Source of the DNA: Patescibacteria group bacterium
GTDB taxonomy: Bacteria; Patescibacteriota; Microgenomatia; UBA8517
Assembly (NCBI GenBank): GCA_038061225.1
Contig: JBBTZT010000003.1
Coordinates: forward strand, 113,092-177,091
DNA: 64,000 bases
Direction: 5' to 3'
The notes beneath the pieces are model-generated. The model worked only from the letters and a program-made list of their open reading frames with translations. It was not told where the DNA came from and did no database searches. Shown here one piece after another: positions 14,785-55,982 of the stretch. Numbering within the stretch: position 1 is the stretch's first letter; every line of letters begins with the position of its first letter. Made by a program: the position numbers and the translations under genes.

Positions 14785-15773
14785 TGGCAAACTATAAAGA
14801 ATCTAAATTAATATTAGAAGAAATAAAAAAGGCAAAAAATATTGTTGTAAATTGTCATCGCGGTCCTGATGGTGATTCAATTGGTAGCGCTTTGTCAATG
14901 CAATCTGTAATTAGTAATATGGGTATAAAAGTTGATGTCATTTGTCCAAATCAATTGCCAGTCGACCTTTTATTTTTAAATAATAGTAATAATGTCAAAA
15001 TTGTTGATTTTAATAAGTTTGATTTTTCAAAATATGATTTATTTATTACTTTAGACTCTTCTACTTATGGTATGGTTACGGGAGATGAAAAAATAGAAAA
15101 ACCAGATATTAAAATAATTGTCATTGACCATCATTTTACTAACGAGGGTTTTGGTGATATCAATTTAATTGATAGTAAAGTTACATCTACAGCAGAATTA
15201 TTGTTTAAGGTTTTTGTAGATTGGAATACATCACTTGATAGTGATATTGCAACTAAATTATTAACTGGGATATTAAGCGATACAGGTTGTTTTCAATATG
15301 GTGGGGTAGGAAGACCTACATTTGAAATTGCAGCTAAATTATTAAGTTTAGGAGCAAACAAAGATGAAATAATTTTTAATATTTTTAGAAGTGTTAAGTT
15401 TGGAACACTAAAGTTTTGGGGGAAAGTAATTGAAAATATGCAATATGATATCAACTATTCTTTTATTTGGTCTGCAATTCCTTTATCTGTTTATAAAGAA
15501 TATGGTGAAGATTCATCTTCAAAAGAAGATGTTGCCAATTTATTTTCTCCTGTAGTAAGGGATACAGATTTTGGTTTGATTATGGTGGAAATTGATAAAG
15601 ACGTTTTAGCAATTAGTTTTAGAGCAAGGAGTAATTTTGATGTATCAAAAATAGCAGAAGCTTTGGGTGGAGGTGGGCATATTGCAGCATCTGGAGCAAA
15701 AGTTAAAGGGTTGTTTGAAGATTCTGTTAAGAAAGTTTTAGAAGTGTGTCGGAAATATGCTAGAAAAAATTAA
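14784..15773 (+). CDS. nrnA: DHH-family phosphoesterase NrnA (bifunctional oligoribonuclease/pAp phosphatase)
   Basis: HRGPDGDSIGSA and VIDHHFTNEGFGD DHH motifs; GGGH near the C-terminus (DHHA1). Confidence 0.75.
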   Translation: MANYKESKLILEEIKKAKNIVVNCHRGPDGDSIGSALSMQSVISNMGIKVDVICPNQLPVDLLFLNNSNNVKIVDFNKFDFSKYDLFITLDSSTYGMVTGDEKIEKPDIKIIVIDHHFTNEGFGDINLIDSKVTSTAELLFKVFVDWNTSLDSDIATKLLTGILSDTGCFQYGGVGRPTFEIAAKLLSLGANKDEIIFNIFRSVKFGTLKFWGKVIENMQYDINYSFIWSAIPLSVYKEYGEDSSSKEDVANLFSPVVRDTDFGLIMVEIDKDVLAISFRARSNFDVSKIAEALGGGGHIAASGAKVKGLFEDSVKKVLEVCRKYARKN

Positions 15774-17256
15774 AAAATTATATACCCTGCCTGCGCAGGC
15801 AGGTCCTTGGAATTTGATGATTTTGATTGTTTTACTTCTGGCTTTTGTTTTAAGAACTTATAGAATTGGGGAACTTCTTGATTTCCATTATGATCAAGGT
15901 AGAGATGCTTTAGTTATCTGGGATTTAATTAATAAAGGTAAATTATTTTTAATTGGTCCAACTACAGGTTTAGCTGGTGTATTTAGAGGACCATTCTATT
16001 ATTATTTAATTGCACCATTTTATTTTTTAGGACAAGGAAACCCAATTTATCCAAGCCTATTTTTAGCCTTAACTACTGTTCTTGCAATCTGGTTAATGTA
16101 CTATCTAGTATCAAAATTTCAAGATAAACAAAGCGGTTTAATTGCAATTTTACTGGCTTCTTTTTCATACTATATGATCTGGGCAAGTAGATGGTTAAGT
16201 AACCCTACACCAATGCTTTTATTATCCATGTTTTTGGTTTTGGGAATGTATATTGTTCTAAAAAGTAAACAATATGGATGGTATGTAATAGCTCTTGTTT
16301 CTGGTTTTTCACTTTTTAGTTTTGGTTCATCAGGTGAACTTTTCTACATTCCTGCAATTTTAATATTTTTGATATTGAATTGGAAAAACAGACCAAATGC
16401 AAAAACTTTAATTGTATCAACGGTTTTATTTATATTTACTTTCTCCCCACTTATAATTTTTGATATTAAACATAATGGAATTTTAAGGAATGGAATGAGT
16501 AAAAATTTTATTGAGGAAAAAAGTTTCACATTTCCTCCCAAAAATATTATAGAAAGTCGAACAAAATTGTACTACGAATCATTTTCAACAAAGCTATTCC
16601 ATTATAGAGGTAGATCAGAATTAATTTTACTCTCTATTTTATTAGTATTATTTATATACCTATTGCCATCACTTTATAAAAATAAATTTTCAAAAATTGT
16701 ATTACTATTACTCATTTCTCCATTGATTGGTCTTTATTTTTATCAAGGAAATAATAATAATTTCTATGAATATTATCTGACAGGTTATTATATGATTTAT
16801 ATAATGCTTTCAAGTTTAGTTCTAGGAAAACTATGGCAAAAAAAATATCTAGGGAAATTATTTGTAATTATTTTTTTATTAATTTTCATACGCAATAATT
16901 ATGAACCACTTAAGTTTAAATTGACATCTAATTCAGACAATCCAAACAGTATTACATTTATCAACCAACTACAAGCTGTTGATTATTTAGCTCATGATTC
17001 AGTTGGCAATAAGTTTAATATTGATGCCTATGTTCCCCCTGTCATTTCATATTCTTATGACTATTTATTTAAATGGAAAGGAGTAATACAAGAAGAAAAT
17101 CAGGTAAGATTACTTTATACCTTATACGAAGAAGATCCACCACATCCAGAAAGACTTAAAGCTTGGCTTGATAGACAAAAAGGAATTGGAAAAGTGATAG
17201 AAGAAAAAAAATTTGGTGCAATAACCGTACAAAAAAGGGAAAGGTTTGTTAAATGA
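15757..17256 (+). CDS. GT-C fold membrane glycosyltransferase, family A paralog 2 (start may instead be ATG 15817)
   Basis: HYDQGRDALV motif. Paralog of 13294. The N-terminal 20 codons contain the 18-bp palindrome. Confidence 0.55.
   Translation: MLEKIKKLYTLPAQAGPWNLMILIVLLLAFVLRTYRIGELLDFHYDQGRDALVIWDLINKGKLFLIGPTTGLAGVFRGPFYYYLIAPFYFLGQGNPIYPSLFLALTTVLAIWLMYYLVSKFQDKQSGLIAILLASFSYYMIWASRWLSNPTPMLLLSMFLVLGMYIVLKSKQYGWYVIALVSGFSLFSFGSSGELFYIPAILIFLILNWKNRPNAKTLIVSTVLFIFTFSPLIIFDIKHNGILRNGMSKNFIEEKSFTFPPKNIIESRTKLYYESFSTKLFHYRGRSELILLSILLVLFIYLLPSLYKNKFSKIVLLLLISPLIGLYFYQGNNNNFYEYYLTGYYMIYIMLSSLVLGKLWQKKYLGKLFVIIFLLIFIRNNYEPLKFKLTSNSDNPNSITFINQLQAVDYLAHDSVGNKFNIDAYVPPVISYSYDYLFKWKGVIQEENQVRLLYTLYEEDPPHPERLKAWLDRQKGIGKVIEEKKFGAITVQKRERFVK
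15786..15803. repeat. 18-bp perfect G+C-rich palindrome CCTGCCTGCGCAGGCAGG (copy 1)
   Basis: The sequence equals its own reverse complement. An identical copy lies at 43642..43659. Confidence 0.9.
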
Positions 17257-18746: not shown

Positions 18747-19494
18747 TATGAATATATCTATAATCATACCATCTTTTAATGAAGAAAATAATATAAGAAC
18801 GGGATCTCTTTCAGGGATAGTTGATTATTTAAATCAACAAAAATATAGATGGGAAATAATTGTAGTAGACGATGGGTCTAGTGATAAAACTGCAGAGCTA
18901 GCTGAAAAATTTGCTAAAAACCACAAAAATGTTGTTGTTCTGAGAGAACCTCATAGAGGAAAAGGTGGAACTGTTATTGCGGGAATGCTAAAAGCTAATG
19001 GAGATGTTGTTATTTTTGACGACATGGATCAAGCAACACCGATTGATCAATTAGAAAAAATATTACCAAAATTTTCAAATGGCTACGATATAGTTATTGG
19101 TTCAAGAGTGGGTAGAGAAGGTGCACCTTTAATCAGGAAAACAATGGCCTTAGGATTTTCTATCTTACGCAATTTAGTATTGCGACTTCCATATAAAGAT
19201 ACACAGTGTGGATTTAAAGCTTTTAAAAAGAAAGCATCTAATGAAATATTTAAACGTTTACAGATTTTTAATCAACAACAAGCACAATCTGGAGCTTCAG
19301 TTTCAGCAGGATTTGATCTTGAAATATTATATGTTGCCAGAAAATTAAAATTAAAGGTGGCGGAAGTTCCTGTCGTTTGGCATCACAAAGAAGGAACTAA
19401 AGTTAATCCAATTAAAGATAGTTGGGAAGGTCTAAGAGATCTAATGAAAGTAAGACTAAATGCTATTCAAGGAAAATATAATTTAAGGAGATGA
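18730..19494 (+). CDS. GT2 polyprenyl-phosphate glycosyltransferase (Dpm1/GtrB-like)
   Basis: ISIIIPSFNEENNI...VVDDGSSDKT...FDDMDQATP...GFKAF. Confidence 0.7.
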   Translation: MDTLNNMNISIIIPSFNEENNIRTGSLSGIVDYLNQQKYRWEIIVVDDGSSDKTAELAEKFAKNHKNVVVLREPHRGKGGTVIAGMLKANGDVVIFDDMDQATPIDQLEKILPKFSNGYDIVIGSRVGREGAPLIRKTMALGFSILRNLVLRLPYKDTQCGFKAFKKKASNEIFKRLQIFNQQQAQSGASVSAGFDLEILYVARKLKLKVAEVPVVWHHKEGTKVNPIKDSWEGLRDLMKVRLNAIQGKYNLRR

Positions 19495-20321
19495 AAACTA
19501 AATCTTCAAAAATAGTTTTGTTCAAAGATCAAAAAATTAGACGTGATTGGAATAAAAAAGAACAAAAATGGTATTTTTCTGTTATTGATATCGTAGGAGT
19601 TTTAAGCAAAAGTACCAGCACTCAGGCATATTGGCGCAAGTTGAAGGAAAGGTTAAAAGCTGAAGGTAGCGAAACCGTGACAAAATGTCACGGTTTGAAA
19701 ATGAAAGCGATTGACGGAAAAATGAGGTTAACAGACGTGGCAGATACTGAAACAATGCTTAGATTAATCCAATCAATACCATCACCTAACGCTGAGCCTT
19801 TTAAATTATGGCTTGCGAGAGTTGGTTATGAAAGAATTGAAGAAACTGAAGATCCAGAAAAAGGAATTCAACGAGCATTGTCTACATATCTTAAAAAAGG
19901 ATATTCCAAATCATGGGTTGATCTAAGGCTTAAAAGTATAGAAATTAGAAAAGATTTAACTAATGAGTGGGATGAAAGAGGTGTTAGTAACTCAAAAGAA
20001 TATGCAATATTAACTGACGATATTACCTTTGCATGGGCGGGACTTCGAACAAAAGATTACAAAGATTATAAAAATTTAAAAAAAGAAAATTTGCGGGACA
20101 ATATGACTAATTTGGAGTTAGTTTTAAATATGTTAGCAGAGACAGCAACTACAGAAATTTCAAAAACTAAAAAACCTGATACTTTTTATAAAAATAGAAT
20201 TGTTGCCAAAGAAGGAGGGGATATTGCGGGAAGAGCAAGAAAACAAATTGAAGTCAAAAGCGGTAGAAAAGTGGTCAGTAAATATCGTTTTGGCGAAAAA
20301 AGAGATAAACTATTAAAATGA
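19491..20321 (+). CDS. Bro-N domain protein (phage antirepressor / DinD-like)
   Basis: N-terminal Bro-N signature (F....iR.....WYFSVIDIVGVL...ESGLY-type, LIQSIPSPNAEPFKLWLARV). ATGA coupling on both sides. Confidence 0.55.
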   Translation: MKTKSSKIVLFKDQKIRRDWNKKEQKWYFSVIDIVGVLSKSTSTQAYWRKLKERLKAEGSETVTKCHGLKMKAIDGKMRLTDVADTETMLRLIQSIPSPNAEPFKLWLARVGYERIEETEDPEKGIQRALSTYLKKGYSKSWVDLRLKSIEIRKDLTNEWDERGVSNSKEYAILTDDITFAWAGLRTKDYKDYKNLKKENLRDNMTNLELVLNMLAETATTEISKTKKPDTFYKNRIVAKEGGDIAGRARKQIEVKSGRKVVSKYRFGEKRDKLLK

Positions 20322-40281: not shown

Positions 40282-41696
40282 ATTATATACTACTTGCGAT
40301 ATTAATACTTGGGTTTATCATTCGTGTATATAAAATTAATTCACTTCCTTTATATGGTGATGAATTAACAATTGTTTACGATTCATATAGTATTTTAAAA
40401 ACTGGAATGGATCAAACAGGACAGTTTCTACCGTTAACATTTAAAATGGGTGCAGGTAGGCCTGCAGGCTATGTTTACGGTAGTATACCGTTTATAGCTA
40501 TTTTTGGACCTACTGTTTGGGGAGTCAGGGGTTTATCACTTCTATCTGGACTAGGAATAATTATTTTGATGTATTTTTTAGGAAAGAAGTTGTTTAGCCA
40601 AAAGATAGGATTAATGGCTTCATTTTTAACTTCAGTCTCGCTATGGGATATTTATTTATCTCGTGCTGGGTTTGAAGCACATTTTGCATTATTTTTAACT
40701 CTTTTCGGAGGTGTTATGTTTTTGTATAAAAAATATATATTTATGGCAATACTTTTTGGTGTAGCAATATTTACCTATCCAACCTTTAAATTAACTATTC
40801 CATTATTATTTTTAGCCTTTATATTTTTTTCAGAAATAAAAAGAACATTTCAAAACAAAACTTTTCTTTTATCTCTTGCAGTTTTAGCTGTCTTTGCGGG
40901 ATTTTCTCTAAAAGAAACAATAAATGGTGTGTCTGATAATAGATTTTTTAATATAAACACCTTTTCTGATTCTAATTTAAAAGAAAGTATTATTCAAAAA
41001 ATTAATGAAGAAAGAAATCTTTCAACATTGCCAGAATCTATTAAACCATTCATTTATAATAAACCATTAAAATATTCTCGAATTCTTTTTGAGAATTATA
41101 TGGAAAATTTATCACCTCAGTTTTTATATTTAAGAGGCGACAGGAATCCTCGACACAACCCAGGTGAGTGGGGAATGTTATATCTAGTTGAATTACCACT
41201 TTTATTTGTAGGATTATACTTTTTATTTAAAGATAATAAAAAAGCTTTAGTGTTATTAATATCTTGGATATTAATTACGCCACTTGCCACTATGTTTTTA
41301 GGACAAACTCATGCGCTTCGAAATAATTTGATGTTGCCTCCTTTTATTTTAATTTCAGCTTATGGATTATTAAGTGTTTCAAATAAATTAAAAAATGTAT
41401 TTATTTTCTTAATATTAATACAACTCATTGGTGTTTTAATGGTGGTTTATTTCTTCGCGCCAAATAAGTTTGGAAGTTTTTGGTCACTTGAGGCAAAAAC
41501 TGCATCCTTAAAAGCTATTAACACTGACAAAAATCAACGAGTTGTGCTCGCGACAAGCATAGACAATATAGAATATGCATACCCAGTTTATGCAAAAATA
41601 GACCCAAAAGAAGTGATAGCTCAATATGGCAAATTTCCTAAAAAATATAACAATGTAATAATTTCAAATGAGATTCAGCAAAGCTATGAAAAATAG
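40218..41696 (+). CDS. GT-C membrane glycosyltransferase (GT39-like), family C paralog 1 (start may be TTG 40251)
   Basis: LPLYGDELTIVYDSYSIL first loop. Confidence 0.55.
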   Translation: MKLEWLKKIQKLIPLRQIPYSNYILLAILILGFIIRVYKINSLPLYGDELTIVYDSYSILKTGMDQTGQFLPLTFKMGAGRPAGYVYGSIPFIAIFGPTVWGVRGLSLLSGLGIIILMYFLGKKLFSQKIGLMASFLTSVSLWDIYLSRAGFEAHFALFLTLFGGVMFLYKKYIFMAILFGVAIFTYPTFKLTIPLLFLAFIFFSEIKRTFQNKTFLLSLAVLAVFAGFSLKETINGVSDNRFFNINTFSDSNLKESIIQKINEERNLSTLPESIKPFIYNKPLKYSRILFENYMENLSPQFLYLRGDRNPRHNPGEWGMLYLVELPLLFVGLYFLFKDNKKALVLLISWILITPLATMFLGQTHALRNNLMLPPFILISAYGLLSVSNKLKNVFIFLILIQLIGVLMVVYFFAPNKFGSFWSLEAKTASLKAINTDKNQRVVLATSIDNIEYAYPVYAKIDPKEVIAQYGKFPKKYNNVIISNEIQQSYEK

Positions 41697-43314
41697 ATTT
41701 ATATTAACATTAATTATTGCTTTAAGTTTCTTTTTACGAATATACAAAATTACTTCTATTCCACCATCCTTGAATTGGGATGAGACTTCAATTGGATACA
41801 ACGCATATAGCATTATGTTGACTGGCAAAGATGAATGGGGGGAGTTTGTGCCACTTCATTTTAAATCATTTGGAGAATATAAACTTCCAGCTCAAATATA
41901 TGCTTCAATTCCGGGAATATATTTTTTTGGTCTTAATGAATTAGGAGTTAGAATCACTCCTGTTGTTTATGGTACTTTAACCGTCTTACTTTTGTACTTA
42001 TTGTTGCAGCGACTTTACAACCTACGTCCTATATCCCTGATCGGCACGTTTCTTCTCGCAATATCCCCGTGGCACATACAATTAACAAGAGCTTCTTTTG
42101 AATCATCCTTTTCTCTGTTTTGGTTTTTGATGGCGATTTGGTTTTTGATTAAAGGATTTAAAAAACCAAAATGGCTTGTTATTTCAACAATTCCGTTTGT
42201 AATATCCGTTTATACATATAATACCGCTAGGGTTTTCACACCATTGTTCTTATTTGTGTTTTATCTTATTAACTACAAATTTATGTTAAAGAATTTTAAA
42301 TATGCTCTTTTTGGTTTTTTGACATTTGTAGCTTTAGCAATCCCAATTATTCCATTTGTTATATCGGGTGATGCTGCAGCAAGATATAAATTAGTAAGTA
42401 TTACAGATGACAAGGGACTAGTACCTAGAATTGAGGAGAGAAGAAATTTATCAAAACTACCACCATCTCTAACTAAATTAATACATAATAGATATACATA
42501 TAATACATATTATTTCTCCAAAAATTATTTAGCTCATTTTACTCCTAGTTTTTTATTTTTAGATGGAGCTGGACATAAACAACATCATGTTCAAGGCGTT
42601 GGGGAATTGTACTGGATCCAAGCACCGTTTTTGATTTATGGGTTGTATTTATTAATAAAAAGAAAAGATAGATCATTAAAAATTTTATTACCGTGGTTAC
42701 TTTTAGCTTTTGTACCTGTATCAATGACCAATGATAGTATTCCAAATGCGCTTCGCACTCTAATTGCTGTACCTGTTTACCAAATTTTTTCAGCAGTAGG
42801 AATATTTGAATTTTTTAAATTTAAAAGATACAAAAAAATAATTTTAAGTTTGTCTGTAATTTTGTTTATAGTTAATTTTTATATGTTTGCTATTAATCTC
42901 TATATCCTATACCCTATACGCTATTCAAAGGATTGGCAGTATGGCAATTCCCAAGTTGTAGAATATATAAAAAATAACCAAGATAAATATGATTTAGTTG
43001 TTTATACAAGAAGTTATGGTGAGCCACATATTTTTACTCTTTTTAATTTGAAATATGATCCCGCAAAATATCAAAATAGTCCAAATCTTAATCGTTTTGA
43101 AACTTTTGATTGGGTAAGAGTATTAAAATTTGATAAATACTATTTTCCAGATTTGGGAGATAAAGGAACAAAGTATGAAGATATAGTTCGCGCAAATCCA
43201 GACACAAAAATATTATTTGTAGGTAAGTCTGGTGATTTTCCAGAAAGTGCAATAATATTAGAAAGGATAAACTTTTTAAATGGTGAAGAAGCTTTTGAGA
43301 TTACTACAAACTAA
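41668..43314 (+). CDS. Family C paralog 2
   Basis: SLNWDETSIGYNAYSIM...DEWGEFVPLHFKSFGE. Confidence 0.55.
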   Translation: MRFSKAMKNRFILTLIIALSFFLRIYKITSIPPSLNWDETSIGYNAYSIMLTGKDEWGEFVPLHFKSFGEYKLPAQIYASIPGIYFFGLNELGVRITPVVYGTLTVLLLYLLLQRLYNLRPISLIGTFLLAISPWHIQLTRASFESSFSLFWFLMAIWFLIKGFKKPKWLVISTIPFVISVYTYNTARVFTPLFLFVFYLINYKFMLKNFKYALFGFLTFVALAIPIIPFVISGDAAARYKLVSITDDKGLVPRIEERRNLSKLPPSLTKLIHNRYTYNTYYFSKNYLAHFTPSFLFLDGAGHKQHHVQGVGELYWIQAPFLIYGLYLLIKRKDRSLKILLPWLLLAFVPVSMTNDSIPNALRTLIAVPVYQIFSAVGIFEFFKFKRYKKIILSLSVILFIVNFYMFAINLYILYPIRYSKDWQYGNSQVVEYIKNNQDKYDLVVYTRSYGEPHIFTLFNLKYDPAKYQNSPNLNRFETFDWVRVLKFDKYYFPDLGDKGTKYEDIVRANPDTKILFVGKSGDFPESAIILERINFLNGEEAFEITTN

Positions 43315-44701
43315 TTTTGTTTTGATTTTAATTTGTTTATTGTTTTTGGGAACTAGACTTTTTAAAATAGACACAATTCCTTCTTCTGTTTACTGGGATG
43401 AGGCATCAATTGGTTATAATGCATATAGTATTTTACAAACTGGTAGAGATGAATGGGGGGAGTTTATGCCACTTCATTTTAGAGCTTTTGGTGAATTTAA
43501 ACTACCTGTTTATATTTATTCTGTTATGTTTACAGAGTCTATTTTTGGTTTAACTCCATTTGCTGTACGTTTGCCATCGGTTATTTATGGTTTGTTATCA
43601 GTCATTGGTTTGTACCTAGTAGTTTTAGAATTAACAAAAAACCTGCCTGCGCAGGCAGGCAAATTATTATCTCTCTTTTCTTCTTATCTTTTTTCTATTT
43701 CACCTTGGTTTTTTATCTTTTCAAGGACAGGATATGAAGCAACTGCAGGATTAGCGTTTTTTATCTGGGCAATTTATTTAATAATTAGAAATAAATTAAT
43801 TTTAGCGACTCTTTTATTCATTGGATCTGCTTATAGTTACAATAGCTTTAGAATATTAACACCTTTAGTACTTGGTCCAGCGCTACTGTATTTTTTACTA
43901 GGAACTAGCAAGCTTCGCTTATTAAAGAAAAGATTTACTGTTGTTGTAGTTTCGATATTATTTTTGTTGATAAGCATTTTTCCACTATATAAATTATACA
44001 AACAGGATTCAGGACTATCGAGGCTGCAAACAGTTGGATCAAAAAACATTGTCCAAAATTATATAAAAAACTTTTCTCCTGACTTTTTGTTTATTACAGG
44101 AGATACAAACCCCAGAAGTCAAATGCTAAATACAGGACAGTTATATTATTTAGATGCAATATTTTTAGTTTTAGGAATAATATACATTCTAAAGAAAAAA
44201 GATAGAAAACTATATTATATTTTAGCCATTTTATTACTGGCTCCAATTCCTGCCAGTATTACAAAAGAAAATCCACATGCCTTGCGTTCTATTTTAATGA
44301 GTCCAATAATGTCGGTAATATCTGCAATCGGAATTTATTATTTATCTAATTTTTTTAAAAAACAAAAACAATTAATTTTTGTTACTGTTCTTGTTTTGTA
44401 CTCACTTTGTTTTGAAAATTATATGTACAAATTCGCTACTCAATATAACAACTTATCATCATCTTCGTGGCAGATTGAATACAAACAAATATTTCAAAAA
44501 CAAAAAAGTGGATGTGTTTTTGATGAATTTGCTCAGCCTTATATTTTTGCACTTTTCTACGGCGTAGACGATGAAATGAATAAAGTTGATCCAAATTATT
44601 TTATCGCGTCTCGCGTTTTAAATCCTGTTTCAGACTGGGGCTTTTCAACTGTCGCATCGTTCGGTAATTATACTTTTCCAAAATTATGTCAAACAAAATA
44701 A
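43280..44701 (+). CDS. Family C paralog 3 (carries the 18-bp palindrome insertion)
   Basis: SVYWDEASIGYNAYSIL...DEWGEFMPLHFRAFGE. Confidence 0.55.
   Translation: MVKKLLRLLQTNFVLILICLLFLGTRLFKIDTIPSSVYWDEASIGYNAYSILQTGRDEWGEFMPLHFRAFGEFKLPVYIYSVMFTESIFGLTPFAVRLPSVIYGLLSVIGLYLVVLELTKNLPAQAGKLLSLFSSYLFSISPWFFIFSRTGYEATAGLAFFIWAIYLIIRNKLILATLLFIGSAYSYNSFRILTPLVLGPALLYFLLGTSKLRLLKKRFTVVVVSILFLLISIFPLYKLYKQDSGLSRLQTVGSKNIVQNYIKNFSPDFLFITGDTNPRSQMLNTGQLYYLDAIFLVLGIIYILKKKDRKLYYILAILLLAPIPASITKENPHALRSILMSPIMSVISAIGIYYLSNFFKKQKQLIFVTVLVLYSLCFENYMYKFATQYNNLSSSSWQIEYKQIFQKQKSGCVFDEFAQPYIFALFYGVDDEMNKVDPNYFIASRVLNPVSDWGFSTVASFGNYTFPKLCQTK
43642..43659. repeat. 18-bp perfect palindrome CCTGCCTGCGCAGGCAGG (copy 2), in-frame insertion in a GT-C gene
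   Basis: Identical to copy 1; encodes LPAQAG in the same codon phase. Confidence 0.9.
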
Positions 44702-46287
44702 CTTACATACTGCTAGGGTTAATTATTACTTTTGCTGGGTTCTTGCGATTTTACAAACTTGATCAAATACCAATATCTTTAAATTGGGATGAAGTAGCAG
44801 CTGGCTATAATGCATACACTATTGCAAACTGGGGGGCTGATGAGTATGGAAATAAATTTCCAATTATATTTAAGTCGTTTGCCGATGACAAGCATCCAGT
44901 ACATATTTATTTAACAGCAGTAGTAGTTAAATTGTTTGGTCTGACTGATTTTAATATTCGCGCAACAAGCGCTGGAATTGGTGTTTTATCTGTATTTGCA
45001 ATATTCTTTTTGGCTAGAGAGTTGTTTAAAAGTGATTTGGCCGGGTTATTATCCTCGTTATTTCTTGCTGTCTCTCCATATCACATTCATTTTTCAAGAG
45101 GTCTTTGGGAAAATAATTTTGCACTATTCTTTTTAATAGGAGGATTGTCTTTATTTTACGTAGGTATACGAAAAAAGAACTATTTGTTTCCTATTTCGTT
45201 CGTATTTTTTGGTTTAAGTTTTTTTTCATACCACTCAGCCAAAATTGTGGTTCCGATAGTTGTGTTAATTGCCTCTTTACTTAATATCAAAAAAATATTT
45301 ACCAACAAAAAGATGCTTATTCTATCTATTGTGGTTACTCTGTTTTTTGCAGGTTTGATAATAGCTGAACCAAAGATTTTAGGGTTTGCTAGGATTAATC
45401 AAACAAAATTTTCAGAGGAAATGATTGCAAAAAGTGGAGATGAAATAAACATTATTTTAAATAATTACAAAAAATACTTTAGTTATTCATATTTATTTCA
45501 AACTGGAGATTTAGGGCCAAGGGCTTCAGTAAAAGTAATTGGAGAGTTTTATAAAATTGATTTAATTTTGTTTTTTGCAGGTTTAATTGCCTTGTTTGTT
45601 AAGCGAAAGTGGCAAGCAATGATACTTATATTAATTTGGTTACTAATATCTCCAATTCCTGGGGCAGTATCATCATTTGATCCAAGTGCAATTAGAGGAA
45701 TATTTATGATAGGGCCAGTAATGTTATTGTCTGCTGTTGGTGCATCTTCAATTGTGATGTTGTTTAAGAATAAACAAAGCTTGGCCAAATATAAATTTGG
45801 TAAGCTACTGCAAACAATATCGTTAATATTAATTTTAATATTAGTAGGTAAAGAGGCAACAAACTATTTAAATTATTATTCAAAAATTTATCCAATCAAA
45901 GAAGCTATTGAATGGCAGTATGGAATGAAGCAGATAGTTGAATATACAAAAGAAGATAAAAATTTTTATAAAATGTATGTAGACAATATTAGACAACAAC
46001 CATATATTTATTTTCTATACTACCAAAAAGTTTCACTCCCAGAACTTTTAAAAACTGTAAAATATGATGAAAGTAATTCAAAAAGTTTTAATACAGTTCT
46101 GTCGTTTGGAAAATATCAGTTTGGAGGATGGAACATTATTAATAGTTATCCAAATGCTGAAATACTGTATGCAATTACACCAAGCTATTACACAGGACTT
46201 AGATATATCCAGCAATTTGACCTAGATAAGCTTATTAAGTATCCTGATAAGACAGACGCATTTTATATAGTAGAAGGGCATCAATGA
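44686..46287 (+). CDS. Family C paralog 4
   Basis: SLNWDEVAAGYNAYTIA...DEYGNKFPIIFKSF. Confidence 0.55.
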   Translation: MSNKITYILLGLIITFAGFLRFYKLDQIPISLNWDEVAAGYNAYTIANWGADEYGNKFPIIFKSFADDKHPVHIYLTAVVVKLFGLTDFNIRATSAGIGVLSVFAIFFLARELFKSDLAGLLSSLFLAVSPYHIHFSRGLWENNFALFFLIGGLSLFYVGIRKKNYLFPISFVFFGLSFFSYHSAKIVVPIVVLIASLLNIKKIFTNKKMLILSIVVTLFFAGLIIAEPKILGFARINQTKFSEEMIAKSGDEINIILNNYKKYFSYSYLFQTGDLGPRASVKVIGEFYKIDLILFFAGLIALFVKRKWQAMILILIWLLISPIPGAVSSFDPSAIRGIFMIGPVMLLSAVGASSIVMLFKNKQSLAKYKFGKLLQTISLILILILVGKEATNYLNYYSKIYPIKEAIEWQYGMKQIVEYTKEDKNFYKMYVDNIRQQPYIYFLYYQKVSLPELLKTVKYDESNSKSFNTVLSFGKYQFGGWNIINSYPNAEILYAITPSYYTGLRYIQQFDLDKLIKYPDKTDAFYIVEGHQ

Positions 46288-47141
46288 TTAAAACTATGAA
46301 CAAAATAAAATTAAGTGTAGTGTTAGCTACAAGAAACGAAGAAGAAAATATTGCAAAGTGTTTGGAATCAGTCCGCCAGCTGGCGGATGAAATTATTATT
46401 TTTGATGAGTATTCTACAGATAAAACAAGAGAAATTGCAGAAAAGTTTGGCGCAAAAGTATTTCTTGAACCTCATCATGATATTTTTCATATAACTAAAC
46501 AAAAAGCACTAGAAAAAGCAAAAGGTGAATGGGTATTACAGCTTGATGCAGATGAAGTGGTATCTCATGAACTTAGAAAGCAAATTATTGCAGTAAGTAA
46601 TCATCAATCACCAATTGTTAATAATAATCCACTTTTTCTTAGACACCAGAAGTTAATTGAAAAAAGAGACGGTAAAATAGGCAAAGATAATGGAGAAGTT
46701 GTTGGCTATTTTATTCCCAGAAGGAATATGTTTTTGGGTAAACCCTTAATTCATGCAGGTGTATACCCTGATGGGGTAATTAGACTAGTTAAAAAAGGTT
46801 TTGCCAAGTTTCCATCTAAATCAGTCCATGAACAAATTGAACTTGATGGAAAAGTGGGTTGGTTAAACGGAGATTTGTTACATTTCGATTCCCCAACTTT
46901 AAAAAGATATTTCATGAGGTTAAATAGATATACAGATATTCAGGCTGAAGAGTTGAGTTCTAAAGAACTACCAAAAAGTATTTGGTCTTTTTATCTGTTC
47001 ACTGTCCACAAACCACTAATCACTTTTTGTTCACTGTTCCTGCGCCATAAAGGTTTTCTTGATGGAGTAAATGGTTTTCTTTGGAGTTTGTTTTCTTCTT
47101 GGCATTTCCCAATTGCATATTTTAAATACATTACTTCTTGA
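46284..47141 (+). CDS. GT2 family glycosyltransferase
   Basis: LSVVLATRNEEENI...IIFDEYSTDKT...LDADE...GFLDGVNG. Confidence 0.65.
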   Translation: MIKTMNKIKLSVVLATRNEEENIAKCLESVRQLADEIIIFDEYSTDKTREIAEKFGAKVFLEPHHDIFHITKQKALEKAKGEWVLQLDADEVVSHELRKQIIAVSNHQSPIVNNNPLFLRHQKLIEKRDGKIGKDNGEVVGYFIPRRNMFLGKPLIHAGVYPDGVIRLVKKGFAKFPSKSVHEQIELDGKVGWLNGDLLHFDSPTLKRYFMRLNRYTDIQAEELSSKELPKSIWSFYLFTVHKPLITFCSLFLRHKGFLDGVNGFLWSLFSSWHFPIAYFKYITS

Positions 47142-47179
47142 CATCTGTCATAGTTCTGTCATAATTGTGACATATGACA
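47138..47179 (+). promoter_or_regulatory. Promoter/operator of the TA module: TTGACA-17-ATAATT overlapping four TGTCA/TGACA half-sites
   Basis: TGTCATA at 47146 and 47157, TGACAT/ATGACA at 47168-47179. The -10 lies 7 nt upstream of the ATG. Confidence 0.45.
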
Positions 47180-47458
47180 CAGCAATTAATAACAATGGAA
47201 TCATTTGCTTCTGTTCAGGAAGCTCAAGCTGGAATAACAAAATTATTTACTAGAGCCAAGGACAAAGGCAAATTTGTACGAGTAATGAGAAATCAGGAAC
47301 CACTTGGGGTATTAATCCCAAACGTACTTTGGGAGTCACTTCTCGAAGATATTGAAGCTCTATCAAGTCCAAATTATATAAAAGCGATTGCTAATTCTAG
47401 AAAATCAAAAAGATTATATTCTTCAGATGAAGTTAAAGAAATACTGGGCTATAATTAA
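47174..47458 (+). CDS. Type II antitoxin, Phd/YefM family
   Basis: FVRVMRNQEPLGVLIPNVLWESLLEDIEAL matches the YefM fold pattern; placed directly upstream of the toxin. Confidence 0.75.
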   Translation: MTQQLITMESFASVQEAQAGITKLFTRAKDKGKFVRVMRNQEPLGVLIPNVLWESLLEDIEALSSPNYIKAIANSRKSKRLYSSDEVKEILGYN

Positions 47459-47461
47459 TTA

Positions 47462-47713
47462 GTGTATTCTTACGAATTTAAGACTAAAGCATTAAAGCAA
47501 CTTAAAAAACTGGATAAAACTGTCCAGAAAAAGATTGTTTGTAAATTGGATCAAATATCTAAAGAAGAGATTTTATTTAGTAACAGAAGGCTAACAAAAT
47601 TTAAAATTGGTTCATACAGGTTAAGAATTGGTGATTATCGCGTAATTTATGATATTGACGGTAAAATGATAACTGTTTTATTGTTGGGACACAGAAAAGA
47701 TATTTATAAATAA
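47462..47713 (+). CDS. Type II toxin, RelE/ParE family (GTG start)
   Basis: YRLRIGDYRVIYDIDGKMITVLLLGHRKDIY signature. Confidence 0.8.
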   Translation: MYSYEFKTKALKQLKKLDKTVQKKIVCKLDQISKEEILFSNRRLTKFKIGSYRLRIGDYRVIYDIDGKMITVLLLGHRKDIYK

Positions 47714-55619: not shown

Positions 55620-55982
55620 ATGGAAAATAAAAACAGTTTTGAAAAACTTGATGCATGGAAGGAAGCACATAAACTTGTAATTGCAATTTACAAAGTAACT
55701 AAAAAGTTTCCAAATGAGGAAAAGTTTAGACTTATAGATCAGATTTGTAGATCAGTCTCGTCAGTAGCGGCTAATATAGTTGAGGGTAATTCAAGGCAGT
55801 ATAGAAAAGAATTTCTGCAATTTTTATATCTATCTAAGGGATCATTGGAAGAAACGAAATACCACTTATTGCTTGCTAGGGACTTGACGTATATCACTTC
55901 CAAAGAATATGGTAACTTTATAGATCAATGTAATTTAGTTGGTAGACTTATTGCTGGTTTGGTTAAATATCTTAGATCTTAG
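55620..55982 (+). CDS. Four-helix-bundle protein (TIGR02436; formerly '23S rRNA intervening-sequence protein')
   Basis: FEKLDAWKEAHKLVIAIYKVTKKFPNEEKFRLIDQICRSVSSVAANIVEGNSRQ...SKGSLEETKYHLLLARDL. Confidence 0.8.
   Translation: MENKNSFEKLDAWKEAHKLVIAIYKVTKKFPNEEKFRLIDQICRSVSSVAANIVEGNSRQYRKEFLQFLYLSKGSLEETKYHLLLARDLTYITSKEYGNFIDQCNLVGRLIAGLVKYLRS

Follow-up and report, generated by a model that had tools for sequence, protein, structure and literature searches.

How does the same GC-rich palindrome come to stand twice, in frame, inside two genes of an AT-rich bacterial genome? The question is raised by a stretch of 64,000 nucleotides from a Patescibacteria group bacterium (Microgenomatia; UBA8517; GenBank assembly GCA_038061225.1, contig JBBTZT010000003.1, positions 113,092 to 177,091 of the forward strand), the whole of which we call the window. 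The palindrome, CCTGCCTGCGCAGGCAGG (hereafter PAL), has exactly two matches in this 64-kb window, at 15786-15803 and 43642-43659, and no third match was found there even with up to three mismatches permitted. A sequence-only reading of this DNA had already pointed to the identical 18-bp palindrome at both places, and both copies are confirmed. We find that each copy is an exact 18-bp gain relative to the orthologous genes, with nothing lost or duplicated, and that PAL is very probably a discrete inserted unit. The two copies and their host genes are as follows; a slash marks the point of insertion here and below.

15757 to 17256, plus strand: host of copy 1, a 499-aa GT-C / PMT_2-family glycosyltransferase gene (Pfam PF13231).
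15786 to 15803, no strand assigned: PAL copy 1, an 18-bp insertion after the second base of a Thr codon (AC/T), adding LPAQAG.
43280 to 44701, plus strand: host of copy 2, a 473-aa GT-C / PMT_2-family (GT39-like) glycosyltransferase gene.
43642 to 43659, no strand assigned: PAL copy 2, the same 18 bp after the second base of an Asn codon (AA/C), adding LPAQAG.

PAL is a perfect 18-bp palindrome of 78% G+C in a window that is 30% G+C throughout. In dinucleotide-preserving shuffles of the window, PAL appeared in 0 of 100. This rules out a chance repeat for the window copies and bears out the earlier view that chance recurrence is negligible. The likeness of the two copies is confined to the 18 bases, and their flanks are unrelated. 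Both copies lie within long open reading frames (ORFs) in the phase xxC CTG CCT GCG CAG GCA GGx, which encodes LPAQAG; the shared codon phase, also remarked on earlier, is thus seen in the reading frames themselves. As RNA, the palindrome would fold into a hairpin of -11 kcal/mol with 7-bp arms and a GCGC loop. It can equally be described as two 9-bp arms in perfect inverted repeat, which is trivial for any palindrome. No T-run of an intrinsic terminator follows either window copy, and no Rfam model matches PAL in any of 18 loci. The copies are separated by 27.8 kb, those in other genomes are isolated, and a regular spacing, of the CRISPR-like kind or of any other array, was not seen for PAL. 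When the window was scanned for GC-rich palindromes, the two PAL copies and one other notable palindrome, TCCGCCAGCTGGCGGA at 46372, were returned. A shorter GC-rich palindrome of 10 bp, GCCTGCAGGC, lies at 40460-40469 within another GT-C-like gene and encodes GRPAGY.

The start of the copy-1 host overlaps the end of a DHH-family (nrnA-like) gene. The sequence-only reading had allowed a start at 15817, which would leave copy 1 between the two genes as a possible intergenic hairpin. The N-termini of the orthologues refute this. About 18 of them (P0122-P0139, 64-86% identity) keep the N-terminus M..K..KLYT/PWNL, so the start codon at 15757 is real and copy 1 is therefore inside the coding sequence. 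At the copy-1 site, in the N-terminal tail ahead of the first hydrophobic helix, these orthologues have exactly six residues fewer. The identical copy-1 allele occurs in 12 independent contigs (Hainich aquifer and Logan assemblies) and is restricted to one species-level population.

Copy 2 lies in a short loop, ELTKN/K, that links two hydrophobic helices. All 60 of 60 aligned orthologues (...LTxx/KLLS...) lack exactly 6 aa there, and two paralogues of the host in the window are six residues shorter at the same loop. PAQAG is found in 0 of the 120 best homologues of the copy-2 host, and LPAQAG as an ancestral peptide is ruled out, since the orthologues are without it. The two hosts had been taken for unrelated genes. 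Both are in fact GT-C / PMT_2-family glycosyltransferases, though the insertion points of copies 1 and 2 are non-homologous.

Among near relatives copy 2 is polymorphic. Hainich sister contigs (L146-L148), 97.5-98% identical overall, have exactly 18 bp fewer at copy 2, with no duplication or deletion. One sister contig, Hain_H52_01um_R3_159, carries copy 1 (L151) and lacks copy 2 (L146); its copy-1 gene encodes an identical protein and is 99.56% identical to the window in DNA. The allele with copy 2 was found in 4 contigs from well H41, and the allele without it in wells H52 and H51. Because the copy-2 alleles recur in several contigs, both are real and coexist in one aquifer. Looking for a clean insertion had been proposed as a check, and the orthologues and a sister strain indeed lack exactly the 18 bp. 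The PAL gains are young: copy 1 belongs to one population, and copy 2 to one of two co-occurring alleles, its insert being absent from every other sampled orthologue.

Copy 2 stands in a patch at 43239-44138, the first ~900 bp of its host, that is 81-90% identical to the sister strain vs ~98% elsewhere. Within this patch there are further in-frame indels: 24 bp extra in the sister strain at 43317, and ~24 bp extra in the window at 43871-43930, which include the near-palindrome AGCAAGCTTCGCT. In other lineages both window PAL sites bear insertions that are not PAL, namely 21 bp encoding LSRRLVN (L154 2031-2051, P0130) and ~24 bp encoding HKQSLPFRG (L150 ~700-730, P0005). These sites are either permissive loops or hot spots.

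Is PAL peculiar to this genome? A scan of one genome per species returned at least 120 stretches with exact PAL. By our own arithmetic, chance would give 596 Gb / 4^18 = ~9 matches at equal base frequencies and well below 1 in DNA of 30-45% G+C; the low-GC PAL matches number at least ~90 among the matches listed. Most carriers are Patescibacteria, and the others include Bacteroidota, Gammaproteobacteria and phage contigs. The 80 records listed include 46 named as Patescibacteria lineages, 10 Bacteroidota, 11 Proteobacteria and 3 Terriglobia. Among the matches listed, the Patescibacteria include WWE3, Woese-, Gottesman-, Beckwith-, Shapiro-, Dojka-, Nomura-, Kaiser-, Yonath-, Uhr-, Zambryski- and Wildermuthbacteria, Saccharibacteria, Paceibacterota and others, and the cultured isolates Litoribacter ruber and Rosettibacter primus appear with loci of moderate GC (0.32 and 0.45). 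Viral contigs contributed 25 stretches. Across these many phyla and phages PAL is hosted by genes, tRNA genes and spacers, and the matches are internal to long contigs, away from contig ends. A count in other genomes had been suggested earlier, with the thought that a motif absent elsewhere and an ancestral LPAQAG would speak against an insertion element; we find the opposite, with PAL abundant in other genomes.

We compiled the properties of about 126 low-GC PAL sites and examined flanking repeats at 203 sites. Exact flanking repeats of at least 5 bp, as a target-site duplication would leave, were present in only 4 of the 203. The target is a purine/pyrimidine (R/Y) step in 73 of 126 sites, against a background of 23%, and a YR step in 1 of 126. 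Counted by arm, a purine precedes or a pyrimidine succeeds PAL in ~79%. No conserved 4-5-nt target or guide was found beside PAL, R at -1 and Y at +1 being the sole flank signal. The R/Y preference is equal in copies of the LPAQAG phase, of other phases and of intergenic position; it is therefore a property of the insertion process or of copy survival and not of codon usage, and a by-product of codon usage is ruled out. Fixing the 7-bp PAL arms and leaving the four central bases free, we obtained 122 metagenome matches. The centre was GCGC in 60 of the 122 (33 of 51 in low-GC DNA), while every other centre occurred at most 3 times. A stem with a free loop is thus ruled out, since GCGC accounts for half of the matches and the other centres are essentially singletons.

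Of the low-GC sites, 74 of 126 (59%) fall inside ORFs of at least 150 aa. Their phases are strongly biased, with LPAQAG in 52 (70%), PACAGR in 13 and CLRRQ in 9 (P = 9.5e-11), a bias that makes an artefact origin impossible. In 47 of the 52 copies in the LPAQAG phase the interrupted codon, which is mostly one for Asp, Gly or Asn, keeps its amino acid. The phase bias is absent among matches in DNA of at least 56% GC, which resemble chance or hairpins of the repetitive extragenic palindromic (REP) type. The copies stand at scattered positions: in spacers and tRNA variable arms, in loops, in low-complexity linkers, which are recurrent hosts, and in N-terminal tails, which are over-represented, since 10 of 62 copies fall within the first 5%. 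We read the bias of phase and position as selection on the translated product.

PAL is not the only palindrome of this kind. The other notable palindrome of the window, PAL2, lies in a third glycosyltransferase gene.

46284 to 47141, plus strand: host of PAL2, a GT2 glycosyltransferase gene.
46372 to 46387, no strand assigned: PAL2, the 16-bp perfect palindrome TCCGCCAGCTGGCGGA, encoding VRQLAD.

The arms of PAL2 match the pattern YCYGCCWG, like those of PAL. Eight copies of PAL2 are present in the 1.1 Mb of low-GC loci that we chose for PAL, often 40-200 bp from a PAL copy, and 55 stretches of viral DNA carry it. Where the window has SVRQLADE, more than 100 GT2 orthologues have SVKSIADE, with no difference in length. 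At the codon adjoining the PAL2 position, one orthologue (L275) carries a perfect PAL (D/LPAQAG/E) and another (L276) a 21-bp variant, CCTGCCTGCCGGCGAGGCAGG; PAL2 itself, with a single mismatch, is present in L277, a third orthologue. The finding of PAL2, PAL and the 21-bp variant at one GT2 loop indicates that the loop was struck several times independently. A 20-bp relative, PAL1b (CCTGCCTGCCGGCAGGCAGG), is carried by 35 viral stretches, and one contig of 29.5 kb has as many as six copies. In one case on a phage contig, the long variable arm of a tRNA-Met gene that ARAGORN calls as complete consists of PAL1b. PAL, PAL1b and PAL2 are all perfect palindromes through the centre. The tRNA-associated PAL1b loci of phage contigs are L360 2239-2330, L337 8616 and L367 515, and PAL1b also breaks the D-loop of a tRNA-like sequence in a phage contig.

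The genes next to PAL do not point to an enzyme. The 150 ORFs that adjoin PAL copies elsewhere match 184 different Pfam families, none of them enriched; the commonest are the N_methyl pilin-type family (5), DNA_pol3_delta2 (3; DNA polymerase III delta subunit family) and GIY-YIG (3). With these ORFs spread so widely, PAL brings no enzyme with it and has none beside it. A check for an associated transposase or recombinase had been proposed, and neither turned up in the window or beside the 150 other copies; nor was a Y1 transposase or a REP-associated tyrosine transposase (RAYT) found among those ORFs or in the window.

We consider it probable that PAL is a non-autonomous element, selfish or neutral, that is moved or made in trans. 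More tentatively, we propose that PAL, PAL1b and PAL2 may be the product of an unrecognised, widespread insertion activity that places a fixed dyad-symmetric sequence of 16-20 bp at an R/Y step without target duplication. Since dyad symmetry is shared by the insert, its centre and the target step, and no stagger is seen, a symmetric double-strand event seems the most likely route, although we hold to it only provisionally. A blunt break at R/Y would take up a blunt self-complementary 18-mer or, equivalently, the same 9 nt (CCTGCCTGC) would be added to both 3' ends before these are joined. Such a reaction would depend on an activity supplied in trans that is either widespread or often transferred. 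Insertion would be roughly phase-blind, and purifying selection would retain copies in loops, in tails and in the LPAQAG phase, where the interrupted codon would stay synonymous and a bland peptide would be added. Once established, PAL, which is prone to form a hairpin or cruciform, would be effectively neutral or selfish in these glycosyltransferases. The main alternative route would pass through a single-stranded hairpin and an HUH-type enzyme, as in IS200/IS605 or REP elements. If the insertion-activity reading is true, PAL would be the smallest mobile element known or a templated mark of break healing, active today in Patescibacteria. The suggestion of a small palindromic insertion element, made earlier from the letters, gains support from the clean 18-bp gains and from the abundance of PAL in other genomes.

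Several points weigh against this reading. No enzyme, donor copy or intermediate has been found, and the mechanism thus rests on its symmetry. The simple blunt-insertion model does not predict PAL2 of the window, which is a same-length replacement and not an insertion, nor does it predict the ~2-3% of PAL copies that are flanked by direct repeats of 7-14 bp. The loci were chosen for containing PAL, which biases co-occurrence statistics drawn from them. Because copy 2 lies in the divergent patch, its strain difference may have come about by recombinational import of an allele instead of a fresh insertion. The number of PAL copies per genome looks low, with 2 in 64 kb here and at least 3 in one 600-kb contig. 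Identity of an 18-mer across phyla is also hard to square with an ordinary element that co-evolves with its transposase.

The minority of PAL and PAL1b copies with direct repeats of 7, 8, 11 or 14 bp include L081 1120, L201 995, L159 729, L220 597, L344 8396, L338 1660 and L354 3391. Their repeats are mostly embedded in heptamer-periodic low-complexity sequence and may reflect target duplication on occasion, or else insertion into tandem repeats.

We also weighed other explanations. It is possible, if somewhat unlikely, that PAL is a scar of break repair. A conserved activity of repair or defence would attach one fixed 9-nt tail, copied from a template, to each end of a double-strand break, or would ligate a self-complementary oligonucleotide, and PAL would then mark sites where the chromosome was broken and healed, with no descent from copy to copy. 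This would fit the palindromy of all three family members through the centre, the symmetric R/Y step without duplication, and an identical sequence in distant phyla with no linked gene. Intergenic copies of PAL often stand at the exact centre of longer inverted repeats, one being a 36-bp perfect palindrome (L077), and such break-prone palindromes have PAL at their centres in L077, L065 and L069 and PAL2 in L066, L082 and L107. PAL also lies inside 5' fragments of tRNA-Gln, beside homing-endonuclease genes. Against a repair scar stand the lack of any known bacterial activity that adds a fixed sequence at breaks, the existence of at least three related yet distinct palindromes, which it leaves unexplained, and the fact that nuclease genes are not generally enriched beside PAL outside the tRNA-Gln cases.

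Movement as a single-stranded hairpin by an HUH-type tyrosine transposase, of the IS200/IS605 TnpA or RAYT kind, would make PAL a minimal REP-like element, one that genes happen to tolerate within them. We regard this as unlikely. It would account for the absence of target duplication and for a stable hairpin with no coding capacity of its own; intergenic copies of PAL are embedded in REP-like repeats, and REPINs are known miniature mobile DNA (PMC3116915). REPs are extragenic, whereas 59% of the low-GC copies are inside ORFs. REPIN/RAYT systems are lineage-specific and vertical (bioRxiv 10.1101/2022.05.22.493013), whereas PAL is identical across phyla. The hairpin is flanked by R/Y only and by no conserved 4-5-nt target or guide, every family member has a self-complementary loop that a hairpin mechanism does not require, and the window and neighbouring genes lack a Y1 transposase.

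An improbable alternative is that PAL is a selected cis-element whose usefulness would be the reason why genomes acquire it, either an mRNA hairpin or the site of a dimeric protein that takes part in recombination, methylation/restriction or the organisation of the chromosome. A restriction target, a recombinase target and an RNA element, all offered by the sequence-only reading, are at most possible. Sites to which homodimers bind typically show perfect dyad symmetry, and PAL2 at 46372 arose without a change in length through the conservative replacement of SVKSIAD by SVRQLAD, as embedded binding sites do. Moreover, among unselected secondary positions perfect and decayed copies are equally common, and in one Sphingobacteriales genome the arms beside PAL look shuffled in a crossover-like way. 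A selected function is at odds with sites that are not conserved among orthologues and that differ between near-identical strains, with the scatter of positions over tails, loops, linkers, tRNA variable arms and spacers, and with the lack of a regular distance to gene starts, of a terminator T-run and of an Rfam family match. Such a function would also need to be shared by Patescibacteria, Bacteroidota, Proteobacteria and phages.

It is still more doubtful that PAL represents an excision footprint, or the abutted 9-bp terminal repeats, of a larger cut-and-paste transposon with the ends CCTGCCTGC...GCAGGCAGG. PAL does amount structurally to a pair of inverted 9-bp ends that abut, the junction in inverse order, GCAGGCAGG/CCTGCCTGC, was also found (4 times), and a few copies have flanking direct repeats of 7-14 bp. 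More than 90% of copies are without target duplication, both window copies being exact 18-bp gains, and there is no transposase nearby. In the 1.1 Mb of PAL-selected low-GC loci, every half-site that lies outside PAL belongs to a decayed palindrome, none is paired with another at the spacing of a transposon, and no larger element with half-sites as its ends was seen. The transposon footprint suggested earlier is thus not upheld. Finally, there is a vanishingly small probability that the repeat arose by chance, is an ancestral peptide motif or results from an artefact of assembly or adapters: prior expectation is all that speaks for such an origin, apart from the matches in DNA of at least 56% GC, which without phase bias could partly be chance, and for the window copies such an origin is refuted by the shuffles, by orthologues without the peptide, by both alleles recurring in several independent assemblies, by the phase bias and by the position of PAL inside long contigs and not at their ends.

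Among known systems, the nearest analogues of PAL are the GC clusters of fungal mitochondria and, at ten times its size, the Rickettsia palindromic elements (RPE), which it appears to resemble in behaviour. GC clusters are short GC-rich palindromes of very AT-rich genomes, strain-polymorphic and in frame in protein genes; they lie beside or within tRNA genes and in spacers, merge and nest, and encode no enzyme of their own (PMC8811140). Examples are in-frame insertions in yeast var1, the 'byp' elements of Magnusiomyces and the Neurospora palindromes that flank mitochondrial tRNA genes (PMC8811140, within which Yin et al. 1981 and Hudspeth et al. 1984 are cited as GC-cluster sources). They measure ~30-50 bp, vary in sequence between genomes, are confined to mitochondria and are usually bounded by AG/TAG repeats that are taken as target duplications, and for their mechanism there are suggestions only (PMC8811140). 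PAL is likewise a GC-rich palindrome in an AT-rich genome, strain-polymorphic and in frame within genes. Unlike GC clusters, it is 18 bp long, invariant including the centre, free of flanking repeats and found in bacteria and phages. The question of the GC-cluster mechanism has been open for decades.

RPE are palindromic repeats that stand in frame in unrelated housekeeping genes and leave the host protein intact; they are ~150 bp long, fall into ten families that are confined to Rickettsia, and code for a conserved peptide some tens of residues in length (PMC10969869). PAL shares with them the in-frame insertion into unrelated protein genes, but it has 18 bp, adds six residues and crosses phyla. 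PAL is best filed as an extreme form of palindromic in-frame insertion elements.

The likeness to other mobile DNA is more partial. REP sequences and REPINs belong to miniature mobile DNA; they are short palindromes that form hairpins, code for nothing and are moved in trans (PMC3116915, PMC3337134). REPIN/RAYT systems are extragenic, imperfect, usually arranged as inverted doublets and specific to a lineage, in which they are inherited vertically, each tied to its single-copy RAYT (bioRxiv 10.1101/2022.05.22.493013). Intergenic PAL copies stand in REP-like contexts, but PAL is perfect, single, mostly intragenic (74 of 126 low-GC sites) and identical in distant phyla, and no RAYT lies beside it in the window or among the 150 neighbouring ORFs. 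[quoted passage not shown] PAL has inverted-repeat arms as MITEs do, trivially for a palindrome, and differs in its 18 bp, in the lack of target duplication and in that no parent element was detected in the 1.1 Mb of low-GC loci. Like IS200/IS605 elements, PAL inserts without target duplication; unlike them, it consists of one perfect palindrome, not two imperfect subterminal hairpins, and has no one-sided 4-5-nt target. HIP1 (GCGATCGC) of cyanobacteria is an exact GC-rich palindrome of 8 bp that comes about by base substitution; it is over-represented both within coding DNA and outside it, and its density is extremely high. PAL2 at 46372, written into its gene by substitution, resembles HIP1 in this respect, whereas PAL copies 1 and 2 are 18-bp insertions of low density.

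The PAL 18-mer was not found in the searchable literature, nor was any description of such an element in that on Patescibacteria, a coverage that leaves subscription journals outside. PAL is thus apparently an undescribed kind of inserted DNA, whether mobile or of break-repair origin, and there is a genuine chance that an unrecognised insertion or break-healing activity is behind it. If this is true, an 18-bp sequence would be the smallest DNA unit known to spread through genomes. It would do so within tRNA genes and within genes that look essential, in the smallest genomes of free bacteria, reshaping protein loops and tRNA arms, and it would be identical in phyla that otherwise share almost no mobile DNA. 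PAL would then serve as a concrete, countable marker for the insertion or break-repair activity, and could offer a bacterial counterpart to the mechanism of mitochondrial GC clusters. Six-residue indels of the LPAQAG type in Patescibacteria proteins would have to be taken as element insertions, not as lineage signatures, and would be usable as strain markers, for example between the aquifer wells H41 and H52.

Some PAL copies are found in a tRNA context. In these loci PAL stands at positions 9-12 of a short 5' tRNA copy, just upstream of an intact tRNA (L027 1725-2105, L037 3530-4013, L042 362-487, L038 6792-6914, L110 389-745, L094 6019-6136 and L120 526-673). In five genomes the fragment is of tRNA-Gln; that of L094 copies the tRNA-Thr beside it, and that of L120 is unlike its neighbour tRNA-Ala. 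A GIY-YIG or HNH endonuclease ORF lies between the fragment and the tRNA in three cases. We considered a general link of PAL to GIY-YIG/HNH endonucleases and rejected it: the association is confined to the tRNA-Gln cases, and a profile built from two such ORFs gave no general enrichment.

In Sphingobacteriales and relatives (L012, L033, L071, L077, L083 and L102), PAL is flanked by a few arm sequences, AGCGTGTTA, GGGCGTTT, CGGTAGCGG and GGATG, in shuffled combinations, and it looks as if exchange had occurred at the palindrome. On two GC-rich phage contigs (L131 5704-6377 and L132), a 208-aa ORF that adjoins a preceding 526-aa ORF is bracketed by two PAL copies. Each of these copies is extended by the same 11 bases, inverted, which yields a 29-bp inverted repeat around the gene.

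The window itself is one long gene cluster for cell-envelope glycosylation. At 55620-55982 it contains a stand-alone gene for a four-helix protein of the 23S-rRNA-intervening-sequence / bAvd-like kind, flanked by inverted arrays of heptamer-periodic sequence, and similar heptamer-periodic DNA flanks a subset of PAL copies. A related genome (L150 3385-3747) has a gene of the bAvd-like family between PMT_2 and GT2 genes, a place where the window has none. Within the glycosylation cluster there are also a PhD/YefM-ParE toxin-antitoxin pair at 47174-47713 and a gene for a Bro-N domain protein at 19491-20321.

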